Below, piece after piece: positions 30,300 through 44,914 of a stretch of DNA of 44,914 bases. The notes beneath the pieces were generated by a model. The model searched no databases. It was given only the letters and a program-made list of their open reading frames with translations, and was not told the origin of the DNA. The stretch is from positions 1 through 44,914 of the forward strand of contig JBEKSC010000023.1 of NCBI GenBank assembly GCA_049517415.1, given 5' to 3'. Position 1 is the first letter of the stretch; each line of letters starts with the position of its first letter. Both the position numbers and the translations under genes were made by a program. This stretch comes from Candidatus Bathyarchaeia archaeon (lineage in GTDB: Archaea; Thermoproteota; Bathyarchaeia; 40CM-2-53-6).

Positions 30300-30309
30300 A
30301 GATCACTTA

Positions 30310-32118
30310 CTAGATTAGAACCCGAATTCTCTGCTTAGAGACTAAGGCACGTAAGAGGCTCCGGCCCAAGTCAGATTTCTTTGAGACCCTAATCTGACTC
30401 TTCTTGCCGATTGTTGCAGAGAACAGGTATTGGTCGCCAACGTAAACGTTCGCAGCTGTGCCCGTCAGATCTTCTTCAAATACTATGTCAATTCGATTCC
30501 CTACTTCTCTAATCTCGTAGCGGACCTCCTTCCCTGAGGAACTAGGTGCCAAAGGTTCTACGTCGATTTTGACGCCCAGTTTTTCTTCAAGTTTCGTGAC
30601 TGTGACACCCTTCTTTCCTATGAGTATGGGAACAATCTCGTTGTCGACCCGAACAACGGCACGGTTGCCAGAGACTAATGTGACCTCACCGCCTGGGTCG
30701 AATTTCCTAATTTCTTGCAATATTCTTTCCTCAGCTAACTTTTGTGTAGCGCTGATTGCAGGTTTTGCATCGCTTACTGGAATAATCACGTTCTCCTCGC
30801 CGAAGGTGTAGATCTCGAATTGCAAGGACCCGTTCTCGAAGTCGCGCACTTCAACAACTGGCCTGGCGAGGTCAGCCTCGATCATGCCCGTCGGAACTTT
30901 AACCGTCAAGTTTAGAGTGAAGAGGTTTCGAACTTCTCCATATTGAATGAATATTATTGTGTCTATGATATGTGGGATCATTCCCAGCTCGACGCGGCCA
31001 ATGAATCGTTGGATAGCGTTAATTGCCTCGCTAGCGTGCACGACGCCAATCATCCCGACTCCTGCCAAGCGCATGTCGGCGAAGATCATGAAGTCCTTGC
31101 TTCGCCTCACCTCGTCGAACACGGTATAGTCCGGCCTAACTAGGAGAAGAATCTCAGCAGTCTTCTCGAAATCCCCTTCCAGAGGGCCGTATTGTGTTAT
31201 TTCTGGGCCAACCTGCAAGTCTCGCGGTGACTCAAGCGTCTTGACGATCTTGTTCTGCCTCCAGTAGAACTCAGCTAGGGAAGAGGCAAAGGTGGTTTTT
31301 CCCGACCCCGGAGGGCCTGCGATTAGAATCCCTTCCGCTCCCGTTGCGAGCCGTTCCATCAGCTTTGTAGAAAGCCTATAGTCTTGTAGCGTGAGGCTAA
31401 CGACGGGCCGAACAATTGTAACTTCTAAGCCGTCGGATAGTGGGGGTCTGGTGATTGCAACACGGTAGCGTCCCAATTGGATGACCATTGCTCCGGCTCT
31501 GTTTATTTCGACAAAGCCTTCCCTGCTGACCCTTGCCGCCTCCGTTATCTCTCGAATGATTTGTTCAACTTCCTGTGTTGAGCTCGGTGTTTCGGAGAGG
31601 GTGACCAGCTCAAATTTGCCTGGTTTTCCTCTCTTTGCGAGTGCCCGCGTCCCCTCTTTGAGATGAATGCTAGACGTGTCGGGTGTGAATAACTTCTCAA
31701 AAGCAAGACCAGTGGTTCTGACTTCGCCTGGGACGTGCTTCACCTGTACGCCCGAGGCTTCAGCCACCAAGGCTTGCACGTAATCGGCCGTCAGCAGAGT
31801 CCCATTCTCAGACCGAGCAACGTCAGTGATGAGAGCATCTAACCTACCGCTCCTCGCTAGCATGATATCATTGTAGCCAGGCCGCTGCCCGAGAAATGTT
31901 AGCTTGATACCTTTACTATCGCAAAAAACCCGTAGCTTCTTGATTTCCTCAAGCCCGACGAAACCTGGCTCTCGTCCCTTCGAAGCTTGTGCCTGAAGTT
32001 CATCTAAGACTGCGTATGGGATTATTATCTCAACGTCAGTTAGTCCACCCTTCTCGATTACCGAAGGCACGTTGCCGTCTATGATTATCGATGTATCGGG
32101 GACGAGTTTCTGAGTCAA
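30310..32118 (-). CDS. PIN-domain ATPase with C-terminal KH domain (PINA family)
   Basis: VPDTSIIIDG (PIN), GPPGSGKTT, ESPRDLQ, DEVR, LIGKKG (KH). Confidence 0.93.
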   Translation of the reverse strand: MTQKLVPDTSIIIDGNVPSVIEKGGLTDVEIIIPYAVLDELQAQASKGREPGFVGLEEIKKLRVFCDSKGIKLTFLGQRPGYNDIMLARSGRLDALITDVARSENGTLLTADYVQALVAEASGVQVKHVPGEVRTTGLAFEKLFTPDTSSIHLKEGTRALAKRGKPGKFELVTLSETPSSTQEVEQIIREITEAARVSREGFVEINRAGAMVIQLGRYRVAITRPPLSDGLEVTIVRPVVSLTLQDYRLSTKLMERLATGAEGILIAGPPGSGKTTFASSLAEFYWRQNKIVKTLESPRDLQVGPEITQYGPLEGDFEKTAEILLLVRPDYTVFDEVRRSKDFMIFADMRLAGVGMIGVVHASEAINAIQRFIGRVELGMIPHIIDTIIFIQYGEVRNLFTLNLTVKVPTGMIEADLARPVVEVRDFENGSLQFEIYTFGEENVIIPVSDAKPAISATQKLAEERILQEIRKFDPGGEVTLVSGNRAVVRVDNEIVPILIGKKGVTVTKLEEKLGVKIDVEPLAPSSSGKEVRYEIREVGNRIDIVFEEDLTGTAANVYVGDQYLFSATIGKKSQIRVSKKSDLGRSLLRALVSKQRIRVLI

Positions 32119-32215
32119 TGCCCAATCCTTGCGTTGCTAGCAGTAGAGCGCTGTCAATAAAAACAGTACCGAGCGAAGCCGAGTGAAGAGCCGCTGAGCC
32201 GGCAAACCTCTCATA

Positions 32216-32770
32216 TTGGAGGTTGCAATCCAAGAGCCGAGGATAGTTTTGGAGCGCTGCATGTCTTCTTCGCGCGTTTACGATGGCCGAATCCTGAATT
32301 TCCGCGTTGATCAAGTGGCCTTGGGGAACGGTGGGACAACGAAACGTGAGGTCATTGAACATCGTGGTGCTGCTGCAATTGTCCCGGTAACCCGAGACCG
32401 CGATGTCATTCTAGTTCGTCAATACAGGTATGCAATAACAACAAACTTACTCGAAATCCCGGCGGGAACTATGGAACCTGGAGAAACACCTGAGCAATGC
32501 GCCTCGAGAGAACTGGAAGAAGAGACGGGATACAGGTGCAAGGAGATTGAGAAAATATTGGAATTTTTCCCCGTCCCAGGTTACAGTACAGAGAAGATTC
32601 ACGTTTACCTAGCTAAAGGGCTCATCAACTCGAAGATGCATACCGAAGACGACGAGAAGATCGAACTGGAAATAATGCCGTTCCATAGAGCCTTGGAAAA
32701 GGTTCGGTCGGGAGAGATTCAGGATGCAAAATCAATCTGCGCACTTTACCGGGCCGCCGAACTGATTTAG
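32216..32770 (+). CDS. NUDIX hydrolase, ADP-ribose pyrophosphatase-like
   Basis: RQYRY, EIPAGTMEPGETPEQCASRELEEETG, IQDAKS. Confidence 0.93.
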   Translation: MEVAIQEPRIVLERCMSSSRVYDGRILNFRVDQVALGNGGTTKREVIEHRGAAAIVPVTRDRDVILVRQYRYAITTNLLEIPAGTMEPGETPEQCASRELEEETGYRCKEIEKILEFFPVPGYSTEKIHVYLAKGLINSKMHTEDDEKIELEIMPFHRALEKVRSGEIQDAKSICALYRAAELI

Positions 32771-33351
32771 TGTCTTGCCTCAATTTTGAAGAAAGCGGGT
32801 TGGCCCGATGAGATCATCCCCATGACTTTCTCCTTCAGCGGGGACAAAATGATGCCGAAATGCTCGTTGTCATATTTTTCCAGTTTCTCGTAGGCTCGTT
32901 TCATAACTGAGAGTGTGATCTCTTGTTCGCTTTTTTGCAAGTGAACGAGAGCAGCGGCTAGGAGAATGATGCCCTGTAGGATCTCTTTCTCGGAACCGCT
33001 GGACCTTCTCCACGCTGCTTCTAGCGCCTCGTGGCTCTCCCAATATCTCTCCTCATTGAACAGGGCCAGGCCTAGTTTGACAGCCTCCGTGTTTTCCATC
33101 AGGGCGGTTTCCACGTCTAGTTCCCGAATCGTCACCAACGAGCCGATCTTAGCCTCAAGAGCTTGAACTGCCCTGTTTGAGTTGGCCTTGGAGTCGATTA
33201 GGAGGTCAAGTTCTACGGCGGAGCTGCTGATCCGGAGATTCCCTATGTCCCCACCCAATGGTCGCACAGCTTCGTAAGCAACCGAGGTTAGGTGATGTCT
33301 GTCAGCTGGGACGTATTTTCGCTCATTTGAAAGCCTAACCAGAAACCTCAT
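32767..33351 (-). CDS. DUF309-domain protein
   Basis: LFNEERYWESHEALEAAW...QGIILLAAALVH. Confidence 0.88.
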   Translation of the reverse strand: MRFLVRLSNERKYVPADRHHLTSVAYEAVRPLGGDIGNLRISSSAVELDLLIDSKANSNRAVQALEAKIGSLVTIRELDVETALMENTEAVKLGLALFNEERYWESHEALEAAWRRSSGSEKEILQGIILLAAALVHLQKSEQEITLSVMKRAYEKLEKYDNEHFGIILSPLKEKVMGMISSGQPAFFKIEARH

Positions 33352-33440
33352 TCTAGATTACCGCACTTTCAGCATGTCAGAAAACAGCTATAACAGTGGT
33401 TGAACGTCAACAATTCTCCGATAAGAGCGAGGTTGCTCCC

Positions 33441-33851
33441 ATGTCTGAGTCACAAGAGTACGTGGTGGACGGCAACGAAGTGAACAAACTCCTAGAAGCC
33501 TACAACTTTGAAGCTTACCAGCCCACCAGTGAACTACACCACATGTTATCGGGCCAAGTCTTCGATGCGATTGAGAAGAAACTCGTGAAAGGCTTGATGG
33601 AAGAGATTGATAAGGCAAAACCTCAGACTGTCAGATTTCAGAATCTTGAAGCGCTGGCCTCAGGCTCCCATAAGGAGTATCTTTACCCAATCTGTGGGGG
33701 ACTTGCCGTTCTAATAGAGAATCTAGGGGCAAAGAACATACAAGTCACTGGGACAGTTCAGAACCCCTTGGTGCTACCTTGGCATTTGGTGGCGAAATTA
33801 GACAAGACCTTCAAAGGGATACCTGCCCCCAGCCAAACACAACCCCCGTAG
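33441..33851 (+). CDS. Hypothetical protein
   Basis: ORF with GAGGT upstream of ATG 33441. Confidence 0.65.
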   Translation: MSESQEYVVDGNEVNKLLEAYNFEAYQPTSELHHMLSGQVFDAIEKKLVKGLMEEIDKAKPQTVRFQNLEALASGSHKEYLYPICGGLAVLIENLGAKNIQVTGTVQNPLVLPWHLVAKLDKTFKGIPAPSQTQPP

Positions 33852-33961
33852 AATCGACTGCATACTTAGGTCCGCCCCACGCAAACCTGCTAACTCAACG
33901 CTCACAGTTGCAGGGTAACGGTTAATTCTAAGCCCACTTTCTTCGAGACAGGTAACTTCCA

Positions 33962-34423
33962 ATGTCAGTCGAGATCGGACAAAAACCTCCGGATTTCCAA
34001 CTCCACGACCAAGATAAAAAGCAACGTTCTTTGAACGACTTCCTAGGAAGGAAAATCGTTCTGGCGTTCTTCCCAGGAGCTTTCACAGGAGTTTGCGATA
34101 AAGAGATGTGCACCTTTAGAGACTCATTACAATCCTTACCCGGACAAGTTGTTGCCGTAAGCGTCAATGACCCTTTCACAAACAAAGGCTTCGCCCAAGT
34201 ACACAACTTGCAATTTCCCATACTCAGCGATTATTCAAGGGAGACCATCAAGAAGTACAACATCGTCGCGAACGACTTCGCTGGGCTGAAAGGTTATGCA
34301 GCAGCAAAAAGGTCTGTGTTCATTTTAGACGAAAAAGGCATCGTCCGTTACAGGTGGGTTTCTGAAGATGCGACCAAAGAACCGAACTACGAAGAAGTAA
34401 AGAAAACGTTAGCTAATCTCTAA
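33962..34423 (+). CDS. Peroxiredoxin (BCP/PrxQ-like)
   Basis: FFPGAFTGVCDKEMC, FPILSD, KRSVFILD. Confidence 0.93.
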   Translation: MSVEIGQKPPDFQLHDQDKKQRSLNDFLGRKIVLAFFPGAFTGVCDKEMCTFRDSLQSLPGQVVAVSVNDPFTNKGFAQVHNLQFPILSDYSRETIKKYNIVANDFAGLKGYAAAKRSVFILDEKGIVRYRWVSEDATKEPNYEEVKKTLANL

Positions 34424-34466
34424 ACTACGCTTCAGCCCTATCCGCGAGGGCTTCACTTCAGTTCTA

Positions 34467-34492
34467 AAATAGAGGAAAAAGAAAAAGAGGGG
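34467..34492 (-). terminator. U-rich terminator after hsp20
   Basis: Minus strand reads CCCCTCTTTTTCTTTTTCCTCTATTT shortly after the stop. Confidence 0.55.
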
Positions 34493-34510
34493 CGTCGGTA
34501 CCGTTACGGC

Positions 34511-35125
34511 TTAGTCGATTTTGATCTCTCTGCCCCGAGGTTTTGGTTTCACCTTTCGGAGGACGATTTCCAGAACGCCGTTGTTGTACGATGCCTTGGA
34601 TGTGTCTGAGTCGACGCTGGATGGGAGTTCAATTTCCTTGTAGTATTTTCGTGCGGCGGAATCGACACTGATCGTTAGCCTGTTTTCAGATATACTGGTC
34701 TTGATGTCTGATTTTTCGACTCCGGGTAGTTCGGCGACTACGCGGACCTGTTCTGCCTCGTTGATGACGTCTACCAAGGGCTCGCGTGAGTCCTTTGGTT
34801 CTAGTGCTGGTTGTTCGAGGCCGAAGGCTCCAGGCTTCTTGGAAGGTTTGACGTTTCCGAACTCTTGTATGACGGGTTTGCCGTCGGGCCCCATAGTCAT
34901 TGAGTAGCCGTATACGAAGGGGCCGTATTGTCGCATGGTTGAGCCGTCAGGCAATTTCCTTTCGGTAATGCTGTCTTTAGGCATACCTTTGGCCATGTCT
35001 TGGAACATGCGTTCGAACATTTGGTCAATATCGCTGAACCACCTGTCCATCCAACCGAAGGGTGATGTGCGTCCTCGGCGCGACCTAAACCATTCAGGGA
35101 ATTCGTCGTCGTTTGACATTCTCAC
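34511..35125 (-). CDS. hsp20: Archaeal small heat-shock protein Hsp20
   Basis: GPFVYGYSMTMGPDGKPVIQEFGN, EPLVDV, AELPGV, ASYNNGVLEI. Confidence 0.95.
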   Translation of the reverse strand: MRMSNDDEFPEWFRSRRGRTSPFGWMDRWFSDIDQMFERMFQDMAKGMPKDSITERKLPDGSTMRQYGPFVYGYSMTMGPDGKPVIQEFGNVKPSKKPGAFGLEQPALEPKDSREPLVDVINEAEQVRVVAELPGVEKSDIKTSISENRLTISVDSAARKYYKEIELPSSVDSDTSKASYNNGVLEIVLRKVKPKPRGREIKID

Positions 35126-35149
35126 AGTTCACCTCGCATGTGCTTAGTT

Positions 35150-35178
35150 TGTTACCATTAGTAACACTTTCATATAAA
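35150..35178 (-). promoter_or_regulatory. hsp20 promoter: TATA box plus palindromic operator
   Basis: TTTATATG (minus, 35171-78); TGTTAC-N5-GTAACA at 35150-35166. Confidence 0.6.
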
Positions 35179-35183
35179 TATTG

Positions 35184-35240
35184 TTACGTAAGGTAACGGA
35201 TAGTTGACGGTTGACGGCTGAGGGTGGATAAAGTCGGTTG
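35184..35240 (+). repeat. Target octamer plus left end of element 1
   Basis: TTACGTAA|GGTAACG-N9-CGGTTG-N21-CGGTTG. Confidence 0.85.
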
Positions 35241-35259
35241 ATAAGAGCCTATAGGTAAA

Positions 35260-35991
35260 CTACCGCTTGCGCTTCTTGCGGGGCTTGGTCACAATGATTA
35301 TTCCTCGATCAAGGAGATTGTATACCGCAAGCAGTATCCCTATCAGAACAAGAATAATGATCGATGATAACGCTCCAATAGTCGCGTACAGCGGGACAGA
35401 ACTTAGCAAATACGTAGTCGAACTTGTCAAGCTGAACACCGTCGTCGTTTGCATCACCTCTGCAACATGTGACAAAGTATTCGTAGACCCGATAGATGTC
35501 ACTGAAAGGTTAGTAATCATGCCATCAAAATCACCAATATTCCCTAGAGTCACTACGTAGTGACCTGATTCGGAGACTCTCGCAGTTGCTACCATTTGGT
35601 TGGAGGAAGGAAATGGGGGGAAAACTGGGCTTAGCTGAATTATCACTGCGTCACTAGGGGGAATGGAGAAATTAGTATTGTCTATGGAGACCATACAAAA
35701 CTGGCACTCGGTTACGTTTACTTGAATGATGCTCCCTGATTGAAGGAAAAAACTGTGACTCACCCAGCAAGCCTCCATGCAACGACCCGCAAGGTTGACA
35801 GGAGCGTACAGACTGAAGATTCCATTCGGTTGAGCGAGGCTCGTTTGTGTTTCATAATTGGTTGTTAGGACAGTGCCTTCTGACATGTAAGTTTCAATTT
35901 GAGGGTTAACTTGGCTTGTTGGATACCAAGGCAAAACAAGGGCGATAACTGCAACCATGAGCACTAGTGATGAAGCGATAACTGCTTTCAA
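35260..35991 (-). CDS. Membrane-anchored S/T-rich surface protein (cargo; paralog of 40085-40789)
   Basis: N-terminal TM ending PWYP, beta-rich middle, C-terminal TM plus basic tail. Confidence 0.75.
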   Translation of the reverse strand: MKAVIASSLVLMVAVIALVLPWYPTSQVNPQIETYMSEGTVLTTNYETQTSLAQPNGIFSLYAPVNLAGRCMEACWVSHSFFLQSGSIIQVNVTECQFCMVSIDNTNFSIPPSDAVIIQLSPVFPPFPSSNQMVATARVSESGHYVVTLGNIGDFDGMITNLSVTSIGSTNTLSHVAEVMQTTTVFSLTSSTTYLLSSVPLYATIGALSSIIILVLIGILLAVYNLLDRGIIIVTKPRKKRKR

Positions 35992-36019
35992 GGTGAGAAT
36001 GGAAGCGATTCATAAGTTC

Positions 36020-37183
36020 TTAAGACTTTGCAACTTTGCGACTCGCATTTTGGATTATGGTGAGCCATTTGTTCTCTCCCTCGATTTTGATTCCTGCAAC
36101 ATCAGCTGGCGTTTTGCCTTTTAGAGCTTCATGTGGCCGTATGTAGTTGTGGAAGATTTGCATACCTGAAAGAATAGGCGTATCAGTTTTCTCTAAGGTT
36201 CGCATCACGCGCTCTCTGTCCCTTAGTTCTCCATTCATGCGCTCCATCTTATTGTTGTGAACCTTGCCAGCCATGCGGATTTCTTGTATGTGTTCGGTTC
36301 TTGTTTCAAGACGTTTCGTGTAAAACTCTCTTAGGTATGCTTCGTGGAAGTTGGGGGCACCGTCAGTTATCAGAGTCTTAGGGCTTTTCTCCGCAATTTC
36401 TTTGCCTTGTTGGAATAGTGGTCTTAGGTCGGCTGTGAATTTTGTGTCAGCTACTTCTTGGGCTATCCAGAAGCGGGTTTGGTCGTCCATTAGGGCGTAG
36501 AGGTACTTCATGTTCCCTTTTACTTTCAGGAATAGCTCGTCTGCTCTCCAAGTGTCTGAGACTTGCGGAGTTATCTTGTCCAGATACTTCTCCATCAGGG
36601 CCGTGTATTTCTCAATCCAGTTGAACACGGTTCTGTGGCAAACATGAACGCCGAGCAGCCGTAATGTCTTGGCCGTATTCCGTAAGCTCTCTCCGCTGAA
36701 GTACATTTGCATCGCCGTCGTTACGGCTTGAGGGCTGTGCTTCATTCGTTCAAAGCCCAAGTTGACGCTGAATGTTCTATCGCAAGCAACACATAGGAAT
36801 CTCTGGATTTCACCGCACTTGTTATGCCTGATTCCAAACCTTTTGAGACTCTTATCGGAGTGGCAGTAGATGCAAGCAGTGATCTCGACAGGCTGAATAA
36901 CTACATTCTCTCTAACCTTTTCTCGTAACTGCTCGCGTAGCTGACAGGCTATGATGTGCTTGCATCGAATAATCTGGTGAAGCTCACTTGCCCTATAGTG
37001 AAAATCTAAGCAACTGCAAATCCAAGAACCATTCTCTCTGCGAACAACATCATACGTTATCTCTCTTGATTGGGAGTTGACTTTGTAGAAGCGTTCATCT
37101 ATCTGCTGAATCTGGTTCGGTTTCTCAGCGATTAGTCGCCCTTTTTCTTCACGGGAGAGAACGGCTGTTTGCATTTCATTCAC
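36020..37183 (-). CDS. DDE transposase (IS6-like core) with N-terminal SWIM finger, Zn ribbon and HTH
   Basis: CSC...CKH (SWIM), CIYC...CVAC, SLRNTAKTL...HRTVFNWI, WRADE / ITDG / NKMERMN triad, HNYIRPH. Confidence 0.9.
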   Translation of the reverse strand: MNEMQTAVLSREEKGRLIAEKPNQIQQIDERFYKVNSQSREITYDVVRRENGSWICSCLDFHYRASELHQIIRCKHIIACQLREQLREKVRENVVIQPVEITACIYCHSDKSLKRFGIRHNKCGEIQRFLCVACDRTFSVNLGFERMKHSPQAVTTAMQMYFSGESLRNTAKTLRLLGVHVCHRTVFNWIEKYTALMEKYLDKITPQVSDTWRADELFLKVKGNMKYLYALMDDQTRFWIAQEVADTKFTADLRPLFQQGKEIAEKSPKTLITDGAPNFHEAYLREFYTKRLETRTEHIQEIRMAGKVHNNKMERMNGELRDRERVMRTLEKTDTPILSGMQIFHNYIRPHEALKGKTPADVAGIKIEGENKWLTIIQNASRKVAKS

Positions 37184-37240
37184 GGCTACGATACTGTAGC
37201 CTAAGTTTAATATAAGGCTTACTACGATATCGTAGCCATG
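37181..37240. promoter_or_regulatory. Bidirectional promoter with twin palindromic operators
   Basis: GGCTACGATACTGTAGCC (37184-201), TTTAATATAA (37206-15), CTACGATATCGTAG (37222-35). Confidence 0.7.
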
Positions 37241-37426
37241 GTCAGAAAAGAGATATTCGGCAAGTCAGAACGCAAAGTCCTAGAAGCATATCTTAGCGGA
37301 AAGCGTCTGAAGGGCTACACTACGCTTTTCACACGAATCCGCCAACTAGGTCTAGCAGAGATAATCGAAGGGTGCGAGCATGATCTAGAGTTACTTAGGA
37401 AGTTAGCTAAGGTCATCGACCTGTGA
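37238..37426 (+). CDS. Small helical protein divergent from the transposase (candidate regulator)
   Basis: 62 aa, basic N-half; ATG about 23 nt from the TATA box. Confidence 0.65.
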   Translation: MVRKEIFGKSERKVLEAYLSGKRLKGYTTLFTRIRQLGLAEIIEGCEHDLELLRKLAKVIDL

Positions 37427-37439
37427 GAGGGATACTTTC

Positions 37440-37859
37440 GTGACGAAGCGGCCAGTGCTTGTGACAATACTTGCAATCGTGTACGCTCTAGCGGGCGTGA
37501 TGGTCATCGTGCTGGAGTCAGTGGTCCTAATAGGTCAAACATTGCCCAATCAATCTTACACTTCAGCTCTTCAAATGGCTGGATTATCAATGATAGTGCT
37601 TCCGCAGTGGGCTATTCTCGTGTACGCAGGCGGGTTTTTCGCATTAGCTCAAGGATATGGGTTTTGGAGCCTGAAAGCATGGAGCTGGTGGTTGTATGTA
37701 GGATTCGTGATCGCTCGTCTTGGGTCCGTCATCTTTTTTCCCGGCATATCCTCTAGGCCCCTAGCAATCCTTGGCGATATCGTAGTACTGATGCTCTTAC
37801 TTTATCTGATCATGCGACGCGACATATTCCATCTGAAGATTCCGAGCTGGCTGAGTTGA
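37440..37859 (+). CDS. Membrane protein (cargo)
   Basis: RPVLVTILAI N-terminus, about 4 TM segments. Confidence 0.7.
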   Translation: MTKRPVLVTILAIVYALAGVMVIVLESVVLIGQTLPNQSYTSALQMAGLSMIVLPQWAILVYAGGFFALAQGYGFWSLKAWSWWLYVGFVIARLGSVIFFPGISSRPLAILGDIVVLMLLLYLIMRRDIFHLKIPSWLS

Positions 37860-37886
37860 TCACGACACGAAAGGTGCCCCGAAAAC

Positions 37887-38078
37887 TTATGCAAAATGAT
37901 ACGCGCGGCTGAATCTACTTCTGATATAGGCTGTCCTTTCTGTGTCGGAACCTGATAGGGCTTTTAGCGTGACTAGTAGATTTTTCGAGTCGTCGTAACC
38001 TAGAATCCATTTCTTAAACCATATATCAAAGTCTATTATCAGTCGATCAACGTCGTCCATAGCTGAAAAATATGCCAA
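37887..38078 (-). CDS. Small hypothetical protein
   Basis: 63-aa ORF only. Confidence 0.3.
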   Translation of the reverse strand: MAYFSAMDDVDRLIIDFDIWFKKWILGYDDSKNLLVTLKALSGSDTERTAYIRSRFSRAYHFA

Positions 38079-38114
38079 TTCTCGACCCAGTGACCGAATC
38101 GGTCGTTATCGGTC

Positions 38115-38528
38115 TTGTCACGATTGCATATGGCATTAGGGTGGGAACGACACTATACGGCGTTCATTTCGGTCGTTATGAATGTCGTTTTCACGGTGGT
38201 TCTGTTTGCTTCTACTAATTTTCCGACACAAATGGGTGGGATACTCATTATCTACATCGTTCTGGGCTTTGTCACAGCATGGAAGACGCTTCGCGCCATA
38301 TTCTTCTTATTTGGAACGAAAACCTTCGGGGCACTTGCCCTGACAGTTGCCCTAGCTGAGTCAGGAAATATAGGATGGACAACATCTATCGCGCAGGGAT
38401 TAAGCCAGTTTGATCTCATGACAGCTGAGTACCTTGTATCATGGGTTGTAATCGCCCTAGTGGTACACGTTGCCGGATTCATATTGTTTCCACCGCATCG
38501 GTCCCATCACTCACCAATGGTAATGTAG
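38115..38528 (+). CDS. Membrane protein (cargo)
   Basis: About 4 hydrophobic segments. Confidence 0.65.
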   Translation: MSRLHMALGWERHYTAFISVVMNVVFTVVLFASTNFPTQMGGILIIYIVLGFVTAWKTLRAIFFLFGTKTFGALALTVALAESGNIGWTTSIAQGLSQFDLMTAEYLVSWVVIALVVHVAGFILFPPHRSHHSPMVM

Positions 38529-38619
38529 GTACGCCGGAAAGGTAATGCTATCAGCCGAAAGGTAACAACGGCAGAAATCTGGGCGATTTAGCGTTTCAAC
38601 CGTAGAGGTAACAGAGCCT

Positions 38620-39192
38620 TCAGGGATTCCTGCCACCTTTGGTTTTCAACTCATCTTCCCAAGGGAAGCGGGGTACAAGTCTGATTTTGTGTTTCCGCGC
38701 GAAACGTTTGAGGGCTCTAATGTTGTCAAATTGAACGGCGCGTATGATGTGGTTTCTGAACAAGTAATAGATATGCTGTGGTATCCAGTATCCAACCTTT
38801 GTATCCGTATTCACTACGTAATACGGATAGTCGGGGTAGAATGGTTCAGGTTCGTCTTTCGGAAACAGAACTTCTAAACGCGCATGGCTCAACGCCAGTT
38901 CTGCGGTTAAGGCAGCGAGTTGCAATCTCTGATATGTTTTCTCTGCATTAGATGGTTCACCAATTCCCAACAACTTGGCCAGTGCTATGGCTAACACTTC
39001 AACGCCTCCAAACGAAAAGAAGGTATTCCAATCGAAGAGGTGAGAAGAGGTCAGAACTGCTAGGAGGACAACGATCAAATAATCGCCGACAATAGCTAGG
39101 CCAAGGATTACCGCCCATCTTCCCGCGAAACGTACCCATTTCGGTATTTTGAGATAGTATCTGCGTATCGCTTGTAGTGTGGAAATGGTCAT
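38620..39192 (-). CDS. Membrane protein with soluble C-terminal domain (cargo)
   Basis: Two TM segments followed by a basic soluble domain. Confidence 0.65.
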   Translation of the reverse strand: MTISTLQAIRRYYLKIPKWVRFAGRWAVILGLAIVGDYLIVVLLAVLTSSHLFDWNTFFSFGGVEVLAIALAKLLGIGEPSNAEKTYQRLQLAALTAELALSHARLEVLFPKDEPEPFYPDYPYYVVNTDTKVGYWIPQHIYYLFRNHIIRAVQFDNIRALKRFARKHKIRLVPRFPWEDELKTKGGRNP

Positions 39193-39324
39193 TTGCTTGC
39201 ACTACCTTAATTCTTGAGCGTCCTGCGAATTTAAGGCAAGGTTGCGTGTCCCGCTTTGCAAACCCCTTCGGAGGCCGTTTTGTCGTGTCCCACCAACGCA
39301 AAAGTTCCCACAAATAACAAACGG

Positions 39325-39439
39325 CAACCGAAACTTTACAGCTTGCTAGGAATGCATTAGCAACCGAGAACTTGACGTTACCTTACGTAAGGTAACGTGA
39401 AGTTCACGGTTGATAGGATATGCTGTGAAATTCCGGTTG
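39325..39439. repeat. Junction of elements 1 and 2 (long imperfect palindrome)
   Basis: CAACCG-N30-CAACCG-N9-CGTTACC|TTACGTAA|GGTAACG-N9-CGGTTG-N21-CGGTTG. Confidence 0.9.
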
Positions 39440-39564
39440 ATGACCAAACCAGAAATATGATTGAAACTGCAAGAATCGTCCCAAAAGCCACTAAAGTAAG
39501 TTTGGTGGTACTCTTCTTGTAGATCACGAATGTAGCGAAGATAAGGACGGCGAGGACATCAAGC

Positions 39565-39999
39565 ATGACGTCTGCCTTTCTAAGTTTCCTAATCTGGCTT
39601 TGGAGCATCCAGATTGACGTCTTCTTAATTCCTGTTCTGACATTGATTGTGGTTCCGTATCGCGTAGATCGTTGTCGGTCAATGGAGACATTCTGCTTAA
39701 CCGCCCTAGGTTTGATTGGTGCATATTTTCTATACGCTCCAACAACTCTAGCAAGCATGACACAGACAAACTCAACCACGCTGTTGCGACTTAGCTTCGC
39801 AACAAGAAGTCTTGGGTTGAATGTATACGGGACGACATTGGCCCAAAGCCTTCTACTGAATGTTCCGACACTCTCCCTCATAATACGATCCACTGGAACA
39901 CGCGAGGATAAGATACTCTTCGCAAGGAAGTTCTGTGGTGCTGCGGCAGTGATGCTATTCGCCGTGTACTGGCTTTATGTTGCTGGTTTGTTGAGTTAG
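39565..39999 (+). CDS. Membrane protein (cargo); strand ambiguous
   Basis: Hydrophobic 144-aa ORF; the antisense ORF 39378-39893 is also open. Confidence 0.5.
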   Translation: MTSAFLSFLIWLWSIQIDVFLIPVLTLIVVPYRVDRCRSMETFCLTALGLIGAYFLYAPTTLASMTQTNSTTLLRLSFATRSLGLNVYGTTLAQSLLLNVPTLSLIIRSTGTREDKILFARKFCGAAAVMLFAVYWLYVAGLLS

Positions 40000-40084
40000 G
40001 CATTTAGTTCTATGAAAAAATCGAATCTGTGGATTCCTCCTATGTCGAATGAGAAGCTTATTCCTTCAGGGTCTATTTCCAACA

Positions 40085-40789
40085 TTATCGTTTTCGTCTC
40101 TTGCGGCGCTTTGTTGACAGAGTGATTATCCCCCAATGAACCAATATGGATAGAACAACTAGTAGCATTGCCAGAGCAAGAAGTATCGTTGAGGCTACCG
40201 CTCCAAGGATTGTGTAGGGTGGGACCGTAGTTTGCGAAAGTTGGGTTATAGCTACTGCATTGTATGTGGTTACCGTTTCAGTTAGCTGAAAAGCGTAGGC
40301 CACACTTGTAGTTATCAAAAGATTGCTAAGCGTGATTGGGATAGGACTAGAGTTGTAAATTAATATGCTGTACGCCCCTGATTTCGCCACCGTTAAGATT
40401 CCGTGTCCATGCCCAAACGCATCATAGTACAATGTATAATTCAGTAAATCATTGCTTTCATGAGGAGAGAGAAAAATCGTTCCCCTTACACAAGGATTGC
40501 AGGGTTGCCATGAAAGGTTCACTAGGTAAATGGAGCCGTTCTGCAGATTGAACTCAGTCGATGTGAAGACGGCAGTAGTTGGTGCCACGAAAATACCCGT
40601 GAGAGTAACGGGGTTTGGCATACTGTAAATCGTCTGCGTTTGATAACTCGTAGTTGATACTTCGAGTTGCGTAGTGTAAGTCTGGGTTTGAGGTACTACT
40701 TGGCTTGTTGGCATCGGATACCAAGGTACGACTAGAACAAATAGGACAACGACAAGAACGACAACTGAACCAGCAATCACGGATTTCAC
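40085..40789 (-). CDS. Membrane-anchored S/T-rich surface protein (paralog of 35260-35991)
   Basis: MKSVIAGS...PWYP...PQTQTY; VPPYTILGAVAS...GIITLSTKRRKRRKR. Confidence 0.75.
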   Translation of the reverse strand: MKSVIAGSVVVLVVVLFVLVVPWYPMPTSQVVPQTQTYTTQLEVSTTSYQTQTIYSMPNPVTLTGIFVAPTTAVFTSTEFNLQNGSIYLVNLSWQPCNPCVRGTIFLSPHESNDLLNYTLYYDAFGHGHGILTVAKSGAYSILIYNSSPIPITLSNLLITTSVAYAFQLTETVTTYNAVAITQLSQTTVPPYTILGAVASTILLALAMLLVVLSILVHWGIITLSTKRRKRRKR

Positions 40790-40825
40790 GGAGAAAACCG
40801 TGGTAGGAGAGATTGGAGAGTGCGC

Positions 40826-41233
40826 TTAAGACTTTGCTTTTTTCGCGCTCGCATTTTGAATCAATGTAAGCCATTTGTTCTCTCCTTGAACTGTGATTCC
40901 TGCAACTTCAGCAGGAGTCTTACCGTTTAGGGCTTCATGTGGTCGTACATAGTTGTGAAAGATTTGCATACCTGAAAGAATCGCCGTATCAGGTTTTTCT
41001 AAGGTGCGCATCACTTTCTCTCTTTGGCGTAGTTCTCCGTTCATGCGTTCCATCTCGTTATTGTGTCGTACTCCATCTAATGCGATTTCTCTAATGTGTT
41101 CTGTTCGTGTTTCCAGTCTCTTTGTGTAGAACTCCTGTAAGTATGCTTCATGGAAGTTTGGCGCACCATCCGTTATGAGCGTCATAGGCTTCTTGTCAGC
41201 AATTCGTTTGCCTTGTTGGAATAGTGGTCTTAG
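40826..41233 (-). pseudogene. 5'-truncated transposase (from LRPLFQ to the end)
   Basis: Highly similar to the C-terminal third of 36020-37183; lacks SWIM, HTH and the first catalytic Asp. Confidence 0.88.
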
Positions 41234-41373
41234 CTGGCTACCAGCTATTCCACAATTACATACGCCCACACATGGCATTCGAAGGTAAAACTCCTGAGAA
41301 GGCAGGTATCGAAGTCAAGGGAGAGAACAAGTGGTTAACTCTGATTCAGAACGCAAAAAGTAGATCAGTCTAA
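41230..41373 (+). pseudogene. Transposase C-terminal fragment in the opposite orientation
   Basis: Hand translation: LAGYQLFHNYIRPHMAFEGKTPEKAGIEVKGENKWLTLIQNAKSRSV*. Confidence 0.88.
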
Positions 41374-41663
41374 TTCGAGTTCTGTGTTTCCGAGGAATCC
41401 TCTCGATGTCCGCCGCGCAAGGCTTGGAAATCCCAAACCCAAAATCGCTGATTGTCCGTTCTTCGCAGGTATCTCCACCACAACTCCAAATTAACTGTAA
41501 GAACGAAAAGGGTAAGGGCAGTTATCAAAGCAACCGTTTCAAAGAAATTAGCCACGAAGGTTTGCATGTAGCGTGAAACGTTGTAGAATGCAACAGCGTT
41601 TATGATAGTAACTACGGAAATTACTCGTAGGAGTAGGTGTTCTTTGCTCGTTAATCCTTTCAT
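41370..41663 (-). CDS. Small 2-TM protein
   Basis: MKGLTSKEHLLLRVIS...LTVNLELWWRY; ATG 41663 preferred. Confidence 0.6.
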   Translation of the reverse strand: MKGLTSKEHLLLRVISVVTIINAVAFYNVSRYMQTFVANFFETVALITALTLFVLTVNLELWWRYLRRTDNQRFWVWDFQALRGGHREDSSETQNSN

Positions 41664-41745
41664 CTTTCTTTTATATCTCTTTTTGGCCAACACCGATTAG
41701 ACAGACGCACAAGTTTTTCCTTCGCAGCCATACTGATACTTGTTG

Positions 41746-41916
41746 TCATTTCTTCCACCAATAGATTATCGCAGATATTACGACTATCCCGATATTGGTT
41801 ATTAGTCGATAGTTGAAAGCGAGAGATTTGTTAGGGGTTAATGCGTGAATTATTAAATCCGCTATCACAATAGTCATCAGCATTCCAATCACCATTTTTA
41901 ATGCTAATCCTTTCAT
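41746..41916 (-). CDS. Small 2-TM protein (56 aa, below the ORF-track cutoff)
   Basis: MKGLALKMVIGMLMTIVIADLII...IGIVVISAIIYWWKK*; shares a 19-bp start-region repeat with 41663. Confidence 0.55.
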   Translation of the reverse strand: MKGLALKMVIGMLMTIVIADLIIHALTPNKSLAFNYRLITNIGIVVISAIIYWWKK

Positions 41917-42065
41917 CTTTCTTCCCCTCTTGGGTAAGTAAGGCGCGTCCCGCTCTTACTGGGTCCCCTGTTTTTCACGAATCGAAACACGGTTCCGTGT
42001 GCAAACTATTACCAATGAGAGGCTTAAACGAGACACGACCAGTAACGGTAAGGTAGAATCCTGAC

Positions 42066-42171
42066 CAAACGAAAGTAAACAGTCTTCCATACCAAACGTA
42101 GACTACGCGTTACCTTACGTGAGGTAACGGTACGTTGTCGGTTGGTGCTTAGAGCTGCTTACTTTCGGTTG
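42066..42171. repeat. Junction of elements 2 and 3 (long imperfect palindrome)
   Basis: CAAACG-N21-CAAACG-N9-CGTTACC|TTACGTGA|GGTAACG-N9-CGGTTG-N21-CGGTTG. Confidence 0.9.
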
Positions 42172-42179
42172 GTCTTACT

Positions 42180-42389
42180 CTAAGCCACTTTGAGCACGTC
42201 ATATCTCCATTGGTCGAACCAAATGTTAACTGTGAGCGGTATCAGGGTAACAAGAATGATCCAGAACGTCAATTCCCCTGTTATCGCAGCATATCTTGTT
42301 GAGATCAGGTAAAAAATGATCGCGTCGGTAAGAACAATGACGATGATTGCACGAGCAATCAAATCATAAAGCAACGGAAGGCGCTTCAT
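42180..42389 (-). CDS. Small 2-TM protein (paralog of 41370-41663)
   Basis: Shared R.I.V....A..FY..S, RY and LTVN...WRY pattern. Confidence 0.6.
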   Translation of the reverse strand: MKRLPLLYDLIARAIIVIVLTDAIIFYLISTRYAAITGELTFWIILVTLIPLTVNIWFDQWRYDVLKVA

Positions 42390-42534
42390 TCAATTCACCC
42401 AGCATGAGCACACTATGCCGTAATCCTCTCTTACGGATTACCCTAGTTCTTAACAAGCGAAATTACTTCTTGCTTGCGCATTTTCGGCTTGCCTTCTGAA
42501 TCAGTGTAAGTTTTACTTTCGTTTGGTAGCTTAG

Positions 42535-42822
42535 CTAAGGCTGAGTACTGAACGCTATGTATTGGTACGGTCCGCAGTGAGGACAGTACTGTAACCGATT
42601 TTCTATTCTTCTCGTGCACATAGAATTGACGCAAATCTTTGTCGTGAACTGACTGATGTAACCCGTCGGATATGGTAACGGATGAATAAGAGAGTCCGTA
42701 TTACGGCAAACTGGGCAGATGAGATAGCTTCCAGCTAGGCTCATCGGGGACCCACAAGGGGAACAGAACCTTACGCCAAAGCTCGAACGACGAGGGTACA
42801 TGAATATGAGATGAGAATTCAT
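42535..42822 (-). CDS. Small zinc-ribbon protein
   Basis: CSPCG, CPVC, CVNSMC, CPHCG. Confidence 0.55.
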   Translation of the reverse strand: MNSHLIFMYPRRSSFGVRFCSPCGSPMSLAGSYLICPVCRNTDSLIHPLPYPTGYISQFTTKICVNSMCTRRIENRLQYCPHCGPYQYIAFSTQP

Positions 42823-42894
42823 TTCAGGACGATTCTACCTGTGGTTTGAATACGGAACCGTTAAGTTGAGCTGCATAGACTCGGTTTTCAAGAG

Positions 42895-43413
42895 TTGCTC
42901 TTGACAAAGAAAGGATTCGAGAGTTTCGCGGTTTACATGTTCTCGATAGATTACCCGAAGGTCTGCAGAATCGAATTTCACCCGAAGAGCATGAAACAGA
43001 AGGGTGACGTGGTCTTCCACTTTCCGGATCGTGAAAAGATATTTGTGTCGTGGGGCAAGCTTGACGTTGCACTGAAGAAGTTCGCAACGGTTGAAGAACA
43101 GGCCGAGAACAGTCTAAAATCCGTAAGCAAAAGTGCCCAACCGAAAACTATGGAACGGATAGACCAAGACTCGATGAAGATAAACTCGCATACGGCGGTC
43201 TACAACCACATTAGGGTGGAAGAGAGGCCCAGGGGATTCTTTCCAAGTAAGCAGAAGATATTGCGCGATGTTCTGTCAATTCACCTTCATTGCGAACCTA
43301 CTTCCAGATACTTCGTTATTTACTCCACGCCCACGCGAAATGCGCCTGAAGATTTCGGAGACCTCTTCCTCGACATGGCTAACACCTTCGAGTGTCACCC
43401 AATCGCACGCTAG
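42895..43413 (+). CDS. Hypothetical protein
   Basis: 172-aa ORF with globular composition. Confidence 0.65.
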   Translation: MLLTKKGFESFAVYMFSIDYPKVCRIEFHPKSMKQKGDVVFHFPDREKIFVSWGKLDVALKKFATVEEQAENSLKSVSKSAQPKTMERIDQDSMKINSHTAVYNHIRVEERPRGFFPSKQKILRDVLSIHLHCEPTSRYFVIYSTPTRNAPEDFGDLFLDMANTFECHPIAR

Positions 43414-43460
43414 TAGCAGGCGTCTAGGGCTGAGGTGTGACGGAAAGAAAAAAGAAAGAC

Positions 43461-43573
43461 ACCTCCGACCGTTATGAGCCTCCTAGGGCGTTTTCCTGCA
43501 ATTTGCTTTCCTGATCTGAATAGAGGCCTAACGTCAGCCGCGTACTTGGTTCCGCTACCTCTTGCGCTATCCA
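43461..43573 (-). pseudogene. Internal transposase remnant with a frameshift
   Basis: WIAQEVAE/KYAADVRPLFRSGKQIAGKRPRRLITVGG, compared with WIAQEVADTKFTADLRPLFQQGKEIAEKSPKTLITDGA in the intact copy. Confidence 0.85.
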
Positions 43574-43599
43574 AACATCAGGTTTGGCACATCTCGAGA

Positions 43600-43635
43600 G
43601 GGTGTGGTACACCCATCATCGGGTGTGGTACACCC
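43600..43635. repeat. Tandem palindromic 15-mer
   Basis: GGGTGTGGTACACCC at 43600-14 and 43621-35. Confidence 0.85.
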
Positions 43636-43769
43636 GCCTCAGTTGTGGCTCTTCTCAGTTTAGACGATTCAAGCGAATCGAATTTCCCGCGGTATGTCGT
43701 AAGGTTCACCAATGTTCGTGTACCAAACTCATAAGAGTTAGATGCTGTTGTGCAGCACATTGTTGCGAC

Positions 43770-44914
43770 ATGCCCATCGCCGAGTCTCCGATCACCGTCA
43801 TGTTGTTTGTGATTGTGCTTTCTTTTGTGGCGGCCATCGTAAGTTCCAAAGTGAAGGTATCTTATCCGACGGTAATGGTTGCCATTGGCCTTATACTATC
43901 AGTTCTCAGATTTGGAGGCGGGTTCGGTACCATTTCCGTCGATAGCAATTTGATACTCGGCATTGTTGTTCCTCCTTTGATATTTGAGGCCGCTATGCGG
44001 ACTCGTTTTGAAGTTTTCAGGACTGTTCAGAAGACAGTCATAGGTTTGGCAATATTCGGGGTTGTGATTTCGGCTTTCGTGAGCGCCTTTGTTCTCAATG
44101 TCACCTTAGGATTGCCATTAGCTGTTGCACTTCTGTTTGGAGTCATAGTCTCGCCTACCGACCCGGTGACAGTCGTGAGTGTCTTGAGCAGGGTGCGGGC
44201 GCCGGAGAGGCTGACAGCAATTCTGGAATCGGAAGCCTACCTCAACAACGCTACACCGGTCATCCTATTTCCTATCGCTCTTTCCTTATCCTTCAACCCC
44301 ATGCAGAGCCTAAGCCAGTTCGCCGTCATCTTGTTGGGAGGAGTTGCGGTCGGCCTACTTGTCTCAGGCATTGCTGAACTGCTGTACAAGATGATCACGG
44401 AGCCTTTGGCTGAGACTTCCTTCACGATAGCCGTCATGTACGGATCCTACGTTCTCGCACAGAGTTTGGGTGTGTCGGGGTTGATTGCCGTACCGATCGC
44501 CGGCCTATACATGGGTAACCGGACCATGCGAACCGCCATGTCTGAAGAAACTCGTATGACCATGACGAAGTTCTGGGAGGTGGTGACTTTTCTCGCTACA
44601 TCCTTTGCGTTTCTACTCATCGGGCTGAAGACGGACTTCAACCTGCTCGTTGCTTTCGCTCCGTTCATAATCGTGGCTTTTGCAGCGATCCTTATTGCTA
44701 GAATTCTTAGCGTCTACCCAATCTTGTGGTTAGCGGAGCTACTCGGGGAGAAGATTCCCAGTTCATGGAAGAGGATAGTAGCCTTCGCAGGTCTACGAGG
44801 AGCGGTCTCGGTCGCTCTGGTCCTGTCGTTGCCCGAAAGCAGCTCCGGGGGCATCATAACGGCCATGGTATTCGGCGTGGCACTTCTCTCACTGATTATT
44901 CAAGCAGAAATTCT
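43770..44914 (+). CDS. CPA1-family cation/H+ antiporter (NhaP-like; runs off the window)
   Basis: Hand translation: PPLIFEAA, SPTDPV, ILESEAYLNN, GVSGLIAV, FWE, AGLRGAVSVAL. Confidence 0.9.
   Translation, partial: MPIAESPITVMLFVIVLSFVAAIVSSKVKVSYPTVMVAIGLILSVLRFGGGFGTISVDSNLILGIVVPPLIFEAAMRTRFEVFRTVQKTVIGLAIFGVVISAFVSAFVLNVTLGLPLAVALLFGVIVSPTDPVTVVSVLSRVRAPERLTAILESEAYLNNATPVILFPIALSLSFNPMQSLSQFAVILLGGVAVGLLVSGIAELLYKMITEPLAETSFTIAVMYGSYVLAQSLGVSGLIAVPIAGLYMGNRTMRTAMSEETRMTMTKFWEVVTFLATSFAFLLIGLKTDFNLLVAFAPFIIVAFAAILIARILSVYPILWLAELLGEKIPSSWKRIVAFAGLRGAVSVALVLSLPESSSGGIITAMVFGVALLSLIIQAEI

Follow-up and report, generated by a model that had tools for sequence, protein, structure and literature searches.

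A nest of three IS6/IS26-like cargo transposons upstream of a Bathyarchaeia hsp20 gene, probably built by insertion 8 bp outside resident transposon tips

Introduction

In the genome of an uncultured peat archaeon, whose transposase homologues are annotated as Candidatus Bathyarchaeia, three transposon units (E1, E2 and E3) follow one another upstream of an hsp20 gene and meet tip to tip across 8 bp of almost constant sequence. The window analyzed here is the entire 44,914-bp contig C23 of this 2.65-Mb, 59-contig assembly, for which contamination is estimated at 6.9%. The locus raises the question of how diverged, cargo-carrying elements come to abut at one place with a fixed spacing, and of what the shared octamer is. 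The original prediction, made from the window alone, took the octamer for the target of SWIM-DDE transposons that build an integron-like array, and offered recombinase sites as an alternative. The evidence set out below points instead to a family of elements that probably form nests by inserting 8 bp outside the tip of a resident element, or outside a host sequence that mimics such a tip.

Tn7-like elements at attTn7 and casposons pile up with target repeats between the elements, and their insertion is guided to a fixed sequence of the host by Cas1 or by proteins dedicated to targeting. The termini of IS6 elements begin with GG. In the sections of two articles drawn on here and below, IS6 members are described as 700-890 bp long, with a single open reading frame (ORF), 8-bp repeats and zinc-finger clades, and ISDsp3 is the sole passenger carrier named there (PMC7986276); IS30 and IS911 insert next to their own terminal repeats, and IS26 inserts beside a resident copy (PMC9333248, PMC7986276).

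Results

Five element ends in the window

A search for GGTAACG-N9-CGKTTG returned exactly five matches in the window, all without mismatches, where 0.09 were expected and none of 100 shuffled sequences gave five. The matches lie at 35192(+), 39382(-), 39391(+), 42114(-) and 42123(+), where the original prediction had placed them, and the octamer-plus-terminus pattern likewise matched five times, against an expectation of 0.07. A second box stands N21 past the first at four ends and N30 past it at 39382(-), spacings that re-measurement left unchanged. Every end abuts TTACGTAA (at 35184 and 39383) or, with one substitution, TTACGTGA (at 42115), again as first described. Both internal junctions read CGTTACC-8 bp-GGTAACG, and the junction at 39376-39397 is a perfect 22-bp palindrome. 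The unit lengths of 4191 bp, 2724 bp and, for the third unit, at least 1451 bp agree with those proposed, and each unit carries a transposase or remnants of one from a single family together with differing cargo. The array is laid out as follows.

35184..35191, no strand: first copy of the target duplication, TTACGTAA, from the sequence read, the pattern match and the hsp20 alignment
35192..39382, minus strand: E1, an intact 4191-bp IS6-like cargo transposon with a perfect TTACGTAA on both sides
39383..39390, no strand: second duplication copy, TTACGTAA, common to E1 and E2 and bridged by contigs of four runs
39391..42114, minus strand: E2, a decayed 2724-bp unit with left-end boxes CGGTTGAT and right-end boxes CGTTTGGT
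42115..42122, no strand: third duplication copy, TTACGTGA, bridged by contigs of four runs
42123..43573, minus strand: E3, a truncated unit with only its left end intact and ORFs of 69, 95 (zinc ribbon) and 172 aa

Contigs from four other public runs, assembled independently, span the left edge, both junctions and the joint between E3 and the antiporter gene with no differences, and a contig of run X16 covers 41799 through 43700 and further. Because these independent contigs bridge the junctions without differences, the array structure is real and no artefact of one assembly, a concern raised with the original prediction. At least 95% of the sampled words of the stretch are present in 20 runs from 19 studies of peat, wetland and soil metagenomes; 13 of the 20 runs are flagged as possible sources, and the 19 studies may share one campaign. 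No excision or circle joints at element boundaries were seen in the contigs of the four runs, a result that is silent either way, since contigs lose rare variants. The closing CGTTACC and octamer once anticipated beyond 44914 is not to be expected, because an ordinary Na+/H+ exchanger gene runs from 43584 and the window is the whole contig.

A constant spacing and a variable octamer

Whether the octamer is itself the target can be judged by comparison across the genus. Here and below, events are inferred from end states in assemblies, many of them metagenome-assembled genomes, and the strict end pattern is blind to decayed ends and to subfamilies with other tips. Fetched loci were picked around transposase clusters; the unbiased counts are the whole-genome pattern counts only, namely the 31 junctions, the 133 strict ends and the class sample of 401 genomes. 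Related genomes in the genus counts are non-independent.

In 3.19 Mb comprising the archaeon's own genome and the fetched loci, CGTTACC-Nk-GGTAACG occurs as 25 unique junctions at k=8 and at no other k from 0 to 30. The 23 genus genomes contain 31 junctions, distributed over 12 genomes, and a reversed-pattern control gave none; among the 401 genomes of the class sample, the junction occurs only in those same 12. Strict ends number 133 in the genus, against 6 control matches, and 37 of them lie in exact junctions, with 12 more at the hsp20-type promoter site, as tallied by matching the coordinates of junctions and strict ends by hand. We rejected a selection-only "safe haven" account, in which elements insert at random and are retained neutrally, as it fails to predict an exclusive 8-bp spacing.

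In the explanation originally favored, the transposase recognizes the octamer TTACGT(A/G)A and each insertion regenerates this fixed 8-bp target. All three spacers of the window take one of its two forms, the octamer is palindromic, and the same octamer is found at the same locus in the genomes G011, G013, G016 and G017. However, the five other strict ends of the archaeon's own genome have flanks unrelated to the window octamer, the 31 genus junctions contain 20 distinct octamers, of which 11 bear no relation to TTACGTAA, and the octamer at the hsp20 site varies by species with the site still in use. In the fetched arrays, the octamer depends on the locus (for example, TTACGACA, TTACGCCA, TTACGTCA, TTCTTACA and GCCGAAAG) and the junction geometry is constant. 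Solitary elements carry perfect 8-bp duplications of unrelated sequence, TAAGAAAG at G004:C33 and CTCAACAG at G002:C39 (genome:contig), and E1, like elements in G004, G002, G016, G013 and G019, lies between perfect 8-bp repeats. For eight pairs flanking 186-bp miniature inverted-repeat transposable elements (MITEs) in G013, the duplications are perfect in four, differ by one mismatch in one and by two mismatches in three. Because 20 octamers and unrelated duplications at solitary copies and MITEs are observed, the octamer is a target-site duplication and no fixed target. The idea of a fixed octamer thus appears largely refuted by octamer diversity, and we consider it extremely improbable. Ends elsewhere flanked by unrelated, non-duplicated sequence would have counted against the original prediction; solitary copies carry 8-bp duplications instead.

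Genome G013 contains about 20 dispersed MITEs of 185-186 bp, made from the family's two ends and flanked by unrelated 8-bp duplications (loci L122-L141, such as L129:638-823). This burst shows recent trans-mobilization.

The spacers also bear on the proposal that a tyrosine or serine recombinase, its gene located elsewhere, uses the junctions as core sites (7-bp inverted arms around an 8-bp overlap) and integrates and excises the units as cassettes. CGTTACC-N8-GGTAACG has such a geometry, and spacers are identical within an array, as strand exchange would require. Yet all units contain a DDE transposase gene, whole or as a remnant, and none contains a gene for a recombinase. The spacers vary between arrays (20 across the junctions), the empty hsp20 site described below is one-armed, and arbitrary sequence is directly duplicated over 8 bp on either side of single elements, a trace that recombinases do not leave. 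In addition, no recombinase domain was found in 17 ORFs scanned with Pfam, and the unit boundaries are transposon ends. On these grounds, the recombinase-site alternative of the original prediction deserves scarcely any credence.

The larger arrays show how octamers are distributed. The octamer is uniform across the four junctions of G017 and the two of G016, in each case together with the promoter flank. In G021, TTACGCCA is found at two junctions and the promoter flank, and TTACACCA at the third junction; the array at G019:C18 keeps one octamer over three junctions. Neighboring elements have the same orientation at five and opposite orientations at four of the nine junctions with transposase matches on both sides. 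Inside two arrays (G019:C18 and G004:C13), the octamer is found in inverted orientation, which points to inversions. The element at G004:C33, which has a perfect outer duplication, holds a decayed inner junction with a different octamer; array blocks can therefore move as composites.

These arrays can be set against a further explanation, in which the transposase brings tips together by end joining or conservative exchange and not by a two-ended insertion, similar to an IS30 dimer or an IS26 cointegrate, and the spacer is one partner's flank. Related enzymes are documented to carry out both reactions, and in the IS26 model a cleaved end is transferred to the resident flank (PMC7986276, PMC9333248, in the sections consulted). 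Consistent with joining, some junction octamers differ from the outer flanks (G004:C33 and G011:C3), and the two arrays with inverted octamers fit intramolecular replicative events. Joining predicts mixed octamers along an array, however, whereas the larger arrays are uniform and match the native promoter flank. IS26-type exchange, as presented in the sections consulted, needs identical reacting ends and leaves no abutted tips (PMC7986276), whereas the neighbors here are diverged, and their 5:4 orientation is unlike the strict rule of IS30, which joins left to right inverted repeats (IRL-IRR). Although it may explain a few odd junctions, joining is very unlikely to account for the arrays.

A further tip-to-tip junction is located in the archaeon's own genome at C16:3029-3065, with the spacer GTTGATTG. 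One partner has no boxes left, and the query used here detected no transposase remnant nearby; this is a relic nest.

The hsp20 promoter as a hot spot

The promoter on which the window array abuts contains the following features, all outside the elements.

34511..35125, minus strand: hsp20 gene (Pfam HSP20, E 3.7e-11)
35151..35165, no strand: proximal palindrome GTTAC-N5-GTAAC, a candidate heat-shock operator conserved across the genus and beyond it in other families of the order
35172..35180, minus strand: TATA-box-like ATATAAATA between the palindromes, a putative promoter element with an invariant core in alignment A1

The orthologous hsp20 locus is present in 19 of 22 other genus genomes. 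In the native promoter, two GTTAC-N5-GTAAC palindromes flank the TATA-like box, an arrangement kept in other families of the order, and the palindrome is also present in G025, in which the query found no transposase. In the window, TTACGTAA at 35184-35191 and the first 6 nt of E1 re-form the distal palindrome (35183-35197). Readable hsp20 promoters from 19 genus genomes comprise 16 that are filled directly after TTACNNNN, at the same nucleotide, and three that are empty (G002, G003 and G005). The empty alleles read TTAC(T/C)AAA-GGTAAC, followed by native sequence. The 8 bp before GGTAAC in these alleles, TTACTAAA or TTACCAAA, are what the filled alleles duplicate, and the outer half-site GGTAAC matches the opening six bases of every element exactly. 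With this half-site and the adjoining duplicated 8 bp, the host site therefore resembles a resident tip. The original prediction had looked to hsp20-upstream loci for empty alleles and arrays of variable length; both exist, with empty alleles in three genus genomes and arrays that differ in their number of junctions.

The octamers at the hsp20 site vary by species (TTACGACA, TTACGCCA, TTACTAAA, TTACATGA, TTACGGAA and TTACTACT) and are uniform within an array. The promoter-adjacent element differs between G000 and G014, though their hsp20 regions are 92% identical. The site thus appears to have been used repeatedly and recently.

The palindrome itself suggests a role for the host, in that a postulated heat-shock regulator bound to GTTAC-N5-GTAAC could recruit the transpososome, a proposal compatible with insertion beside tips. 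The hot spot, and perhaps tip targeting as well, would then be directed by a protein and not by the transposase reading a terminus. The hot spot lies within a conserved paired operator; copies of this operator also precede dnaK and other genes. GTAAC is part of the element terminus as well, with GGTAACGTTACC at many ends. However, operators of the same type elsewhere in the genome are unoccupied, and junctions elsewhere are spaced GTTAC-N10-GTAAC and not N5. Such tethering may act at the hsp20 site but leaves the other arrays unexplained, and we regard it as unlikely.

GTTAC-N5-GTAAC occurs eight times in the genome, where about 2.5 occurrences are expected (C1:148713 and 148745, C6:8088, C11:71540, C48:5207, C49:6980, and 35151-35197 of the window). 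Pairs surround a TATA-like box at hsp20 and in C1, and one copy lies just upstream of a dnaK-like start, MPKIIGIDLGTSNS. The motif is a candidate heat-shock operator of Bathyarchaeia.

A small DnaJ-type zinc finger with repeated CxxCxGxG is encoded divergently from hsp20 in the empty alleles (L090:2270-2539, G002). Its orthologue in the archaeon's own genome is located on other contigs (C2:9857-10068), and synteny on that side of the hot spot is broken. A 19-nt motif that represents the native sequence to the right of the empty site is absent from the own genome and from all fetched arrays. Because the right flank is absent and the zinc-finger gene lies on other contigs, a closing end beside a native GGTAAC is not demonstrable. 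In addition, a 47-bp copy of the hsp20-promoter end, without the hsp20 gene, adjoins a second array (G013:C4:218207-218253 and G019:C174:34-80); either an array block carried part of the promoter along or the assemblies mix two strains.

The transposase and its family

36020..37183, minus strand: transposase of E1, 387 aa, with CxCx15CxH at residues 56-76, a zinc ribbon at 104-139, and an IS6-type helix-turn-helix (HTH) and DDE domain at 144-348

The Pfam family DDE_Tnp_IS240 (PF13610) matches residues 210-348 of this protein with 55.6 bits, against a cut-off of 27. The best NCBIfam match, transpos_IS6, extends over the full model (residues 144-348) and scores 102.5 bits, under the curated cut-off of 125; the protein is therefore a non-canonical member on a distant branch. 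After IS6, the NCBIfam matches are IS1, IS481 and IS3, with no match to an IS30 family. The zinc ribbon is of the IS1/IS1595 type. A PDB sequence search with the transposase gave no matches at E up to 1. The SWIM label given to the protein stands in part: a CxCx15CxH signature is visible as C56-x-C58-x15-C74-x-H76, and PF04434 is precomputed for 7 of 120 close relatives, among the matches listed, but Pfam makes no SWIM call (PF04434) in the E1 transposase, even at E up to 10.

A single search scored more than 5,000 homologues, and these are annotated only as generic Bathyarchaeia DDE transposases. The family is present in 20 of 22 other genus genomes, with its copies clustered. Its elements span 1.3-5 kb and contain 2-6 ORFs, including several passenger genes, and the cargo consists mostly of small membrane proteins. 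The element ends are about 60 bp long and combine an invariant GGTAACG with two subfamily-specific boxes, CGGTTG, CGTTTG or CGTCTG. GGTTG boxes accompany all eight transposases that are at least 72% identical to that of E1, and GTTTGG boxes all seven at 59-67% identity, in a tally drawn from 31 full-length matches, of which 13 had no assigned end, one wrong assignment was dropped and two are doubtful. Box type thus appears to follow transposase clade, with the boxes as likely cognate sites. All three box types are combined with the common 7-bp tip, which would explain why subfamilies stack on each other. Between box clades, the N-terminal zinc domains diverge most (0.46-0.53) and the HTH and DDE domains least (0.67-0.71), a comparison that is suggestive only, as two of nine CGTTTG-clade assignments are doubtful.

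Taken by their sequences, the elements are distant IS6/IS26-like DDE transposons of a Bathyarchaeia genus. Two parts of the original prediction are borne out: that the units belong to a single IS6-like family of cargo-carrying DDE transposons, which have multi-site ends and duplicate 8 bp, and, from the array and the genus comparison, that diverged relatives inserted repeatedly at one place.

A model of insertion beside resident tips

The three units are probably a nest of IS6/IS26-related transposons formed by insertion 8 bp outside resident tips or a host mimic of a tip. Spacing and octamers together argue that the family can insert at many sites and very strongly favors the 8 bp that adjoin a resident terminus on its outer side. 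A newcomer would duplicate the octamer that flanks the resident and come to lie tip to tip with it, as CGTTACC-8 bp-GGTAACG, and repeated tip-adjacent insertions would give arrays with one octamer at every spacer. The hsp20 promoter would seed arrays, its operator half-site GGTAAC mimicking the terminus with TTACNNNN directly beside it. Insertion there would re-form the palindrome with the element tip and leave the TATA box and the inner operator untouched.

In the proposed reaction, a transposase protomer may bind the resident terminus or its mimic in the manner of donor cleavage. The role of water in that cleavage would be taken by the incoming 3'-OH, which would attack the terminus/flank phosphodiester, and the second end would attack the other strand 8 bp away. 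With an 8-bp 5' stagger at a resident left end, the bottom-strand bond attacked would be the tip/flank bond that is hydrolyzed in donor cleavage. This first step resembles proposals, in the sections cited, for IS26 targeted integration and for IS911/IS30 terminal-repeat targeting (PMC7986276, PMC9333248). Here, the neighbors are diverged, and the product would be a full insertion by both ends with a fresh duplication. Arrays would later decay by deletion and inversion, and blocks could move as composites.

Several observations weigh against insertion beside tips as the full explanation. The model is built on end states in assemblies, and the NCBIfam IS6 score of the transposase is under its cut-off. 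Tip targeting is non-obligatory: 96 of the 133 strict ends lie outside exact junctions, and the G013 MITEs are dispersed. Other operators that contain GGTAAC (C48 and C49) are unoccupied, and no clear native tip mimic was found outside the hsp20 site among 33 non-abutted flanks. In these flanks, the match to GGTAACG beyond the duplication is 70, compared with 41-68 at other offsets, and is thus weakly above them; the signal comes mainly from positions 2 and 3, a weak GGT preference, and some flanks are non-independent. The closing structure, consisting of an end, the octamer and a native GGTAAC, was not found here or in other fetched arrays. Finally, uniform octamers could partly reflect turnover within an old array and not independent colonization.

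Contents of the elements

35192-35240: E1 left end, GGTAACG with boxes at 35208 and 35235
39325-39382: E1 right end, boxes at 39361 and 39325
35260..35991, minus strand: 243-aa protein encoded immediately downstream of the transposase; it has an N-terminal anchor, a transmembrane segment at the C-terminus and a basic tail
37238..37426, plus strand: conserved 62-aa ORF divergent from the transposase gene, a candidate regulator (tblastn)
37440-37859 (plus), 38115-38528 (plus) and 38620-39192 (minus): E1 cargo, three small membrane-protein ORFs, from hydrophobic segments
40085-40789, minus strand: E2 surface-protein paralogue of the 243-aa protein, accompanied in E2 by small transmembrane ORFs
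40826-41278 (minus; the match at 40829-41239 has 80% identity) and 41227-41364 (plus): E2 transposase remnants
43461-43559, minus strand: E3 transposase remnant, aa 244-276, E 7e-5
43584..44912, plus strand: Na+/H+ exchanger gene, ordinary chromosome outside the array (Pfam Na_H_Exchanger, E 5.4e-58)

The hydrophobic segments of the 243-aa protein lie at residues 1-28 and 195-235. The protein is a paralogue of the E2 ORF (32% identity, E 4e-18, BLASTP), and neither Pfam, NCBIfam nor PADLOC assigned it a family. A GOLD- or PPC-like sandwich fold was considered and left unused, the Atlas leads being weak (scores below 0.9 and TM below 0.5). The 62-aa ORF adjoins the transposase gene in most full-length elements, with 57-82% identity by tblastn, and has no Pfam or NCBIfam family; its product is a candidate regulator. 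The divergent intergenic region at 37184-37237 contains the palindromes GGCTAC-N6-GTAGCC and CTACGAT|ATCGTAG around a TATA-like TTTAATATA. The region resembles an autoregulatory switch that may serve the 62-aa protein.

No Pfam, NCBIfam or PADLOC family was found above threshold for the E1 cargo (37440..39192), and these ORFs are unconserved in other elements, save for one 34%-identity match to 38115-38528. Defense genes were considered among the cargo and rejected: PADLOC on 12 cargo ORFs gave a single 2TM effector (E 0.0045), and because this sole match is sub-threshold, there is no basis for a defense label. Rfam gave no families in 34400-44000 and ARAGORN no tRNAs in 30000-44914; the array is therefore no tRNA-targeting island.

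E2 is a decayed chimera, because its two ends differ in box type. Within it, the summed contig depth of 41368-41661 (ORF 41370-41693, 107 aa, two transmembrane segments) is about 3-8 times that of its neighbors in all four runs; 36370-36663 was noted alongside it. The sole joint, from 41389 to 41538 in three runs (148 bp skipped), lies within the multi-copy segment. Relatives of the ORF with two transmembrane segments are found in four other loci, at 48-68% identity. The segment 41368-41661 is a cargo segment that is multi-copy in the community.

E3 is truncated inside its transposase gene and runs straight into the Na+/H+ exchanger gene. No right end of E3 was found, and inspection of 43400-43600 by eye revealed no degenerate end. 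Orthologues of the exchanger sit in other contexts in relatives. At the start of the exchanger ORF after E3 (43600-43640), the palindromic 15-mer GGGTGTGGTACACCC is present in two direct copies 7 nt apart. This pair may be an operator or mark the true upstream region; matches to exchanger orthologues start only at about 43733.

Discussion

The elements combine features of several known systems. Similar to Tn7-like elements and casposons, successive different elements stand head to tail at one locus with target repeats between them; the difference is that the element's own tip would be the feature recognized here, so any first insertion could seed an array. The resemblance to integrons, a row of gene-carrying units at one site beside a promoter, is superficial. 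The window has no IntI, attI/attC or common promoter, and its units, which differ in orientation, are transposons that are either autonomous or decayed. The "integron-like" description in the original prediction is accordingly dropped: the array showed no integrase, attC-like sites or expression platform, and only one of its three units is intact.

One close likeness is to IS6 and IS26, with which the elements share an IS240-type DDE domain, 8-bp direct repeats and, in the case of IS26, a preference for a resident copy (PMC7986276). Extra N-terminal zinc-binding domains are likewise described for some IS6 members, with long zinc-finger clades h and i (PMC7986276). The elements here are larger, however, at 1.3-5 kb with 2-6 ORFs rather than 700-890 bp with one ORF, and their ends consist of a 7-bp perfect repeat and two boxes rather than inverted repeats of about 14 bp (PMC7986276). 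In the account of IS26 targeted conservative events used here, these events produce neither a new duplication nor abutted tips, whereas both are observed in the present elements (PMC7986276). IS6 elements transpose exclusively via cointegrates, by a copy-in or a targeted conservative route; for the present elements, the inverted octamers of two arrays are no more than indirect hints of this. IS30 and IS911 provide a second likeness, in that a DDE enzyme inserts beside a resident inverted repeat (IR) or an IR-like site and the IR-IR spacer equals the duplication length (PMC9333248). The spacer is 2-3 bp in those systems, in contrast to 8 bp here, and they use IS30 and IS3 transposases and a copy-out-paste-in pathway (PMC9333248). 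In addition, IS30 junctions are described as strictly IRL-IRR and highly reactive, whereas those reported here are mixed (5:4) and persist while the units decay (PMC9333248). In the present case, a host operator half-site would serve as the seed.

A literature search that covered few of the subscription journals found no published description of these archaeal cargo elements or of their stacking. This large archaeal IS6-like branch thus appears undescribed, with a tip-adjacent targeting akin to that of IS30, IS911 and IS26 that differs in spacing, orientation rule and outcome.

Two wider proposals follow the model at different strengths. In the first, the element's own 7-bp tip, or a host half-site resembling it, is a landing pad that gives self-extending nests at safe sites such as the hsp20 promoter, where diverged subfamilies that differ in box specificity cross-target one another by way of the common tip, fuse, move as blocks and accrete cargo; we hold this to be evenly poised between right and wrong. 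In the second, which seems quite unlikely, the tips mimic the heat-shock operator and are bound by a host stress regulator, coupling targeting or activity to stress.

The filled and empty alleles of one promoter, together with 31 junctions that carry 20 octamers, constitute a natural experiment for the rule "8 bp outside a GGTAAC(G) tip." A by-product is the candidate Bathyarchaeia heat-shock operator GTTAC-N5-GTAAC. The 8-bp rule would account for the nests and patchwork elements of these cargo-laden archaeal transposons, and it offers a testable mechanism that joins IS26-type targeted integration with the IR-targeting of IS30 and IS911. If the tip alone suffices, the rule would be a natural, minimal and sequence-addressable means of targeting for a DDE transposase, and the GGTAAC(G) tip would be a simple DNA address of possible use in directed integration.

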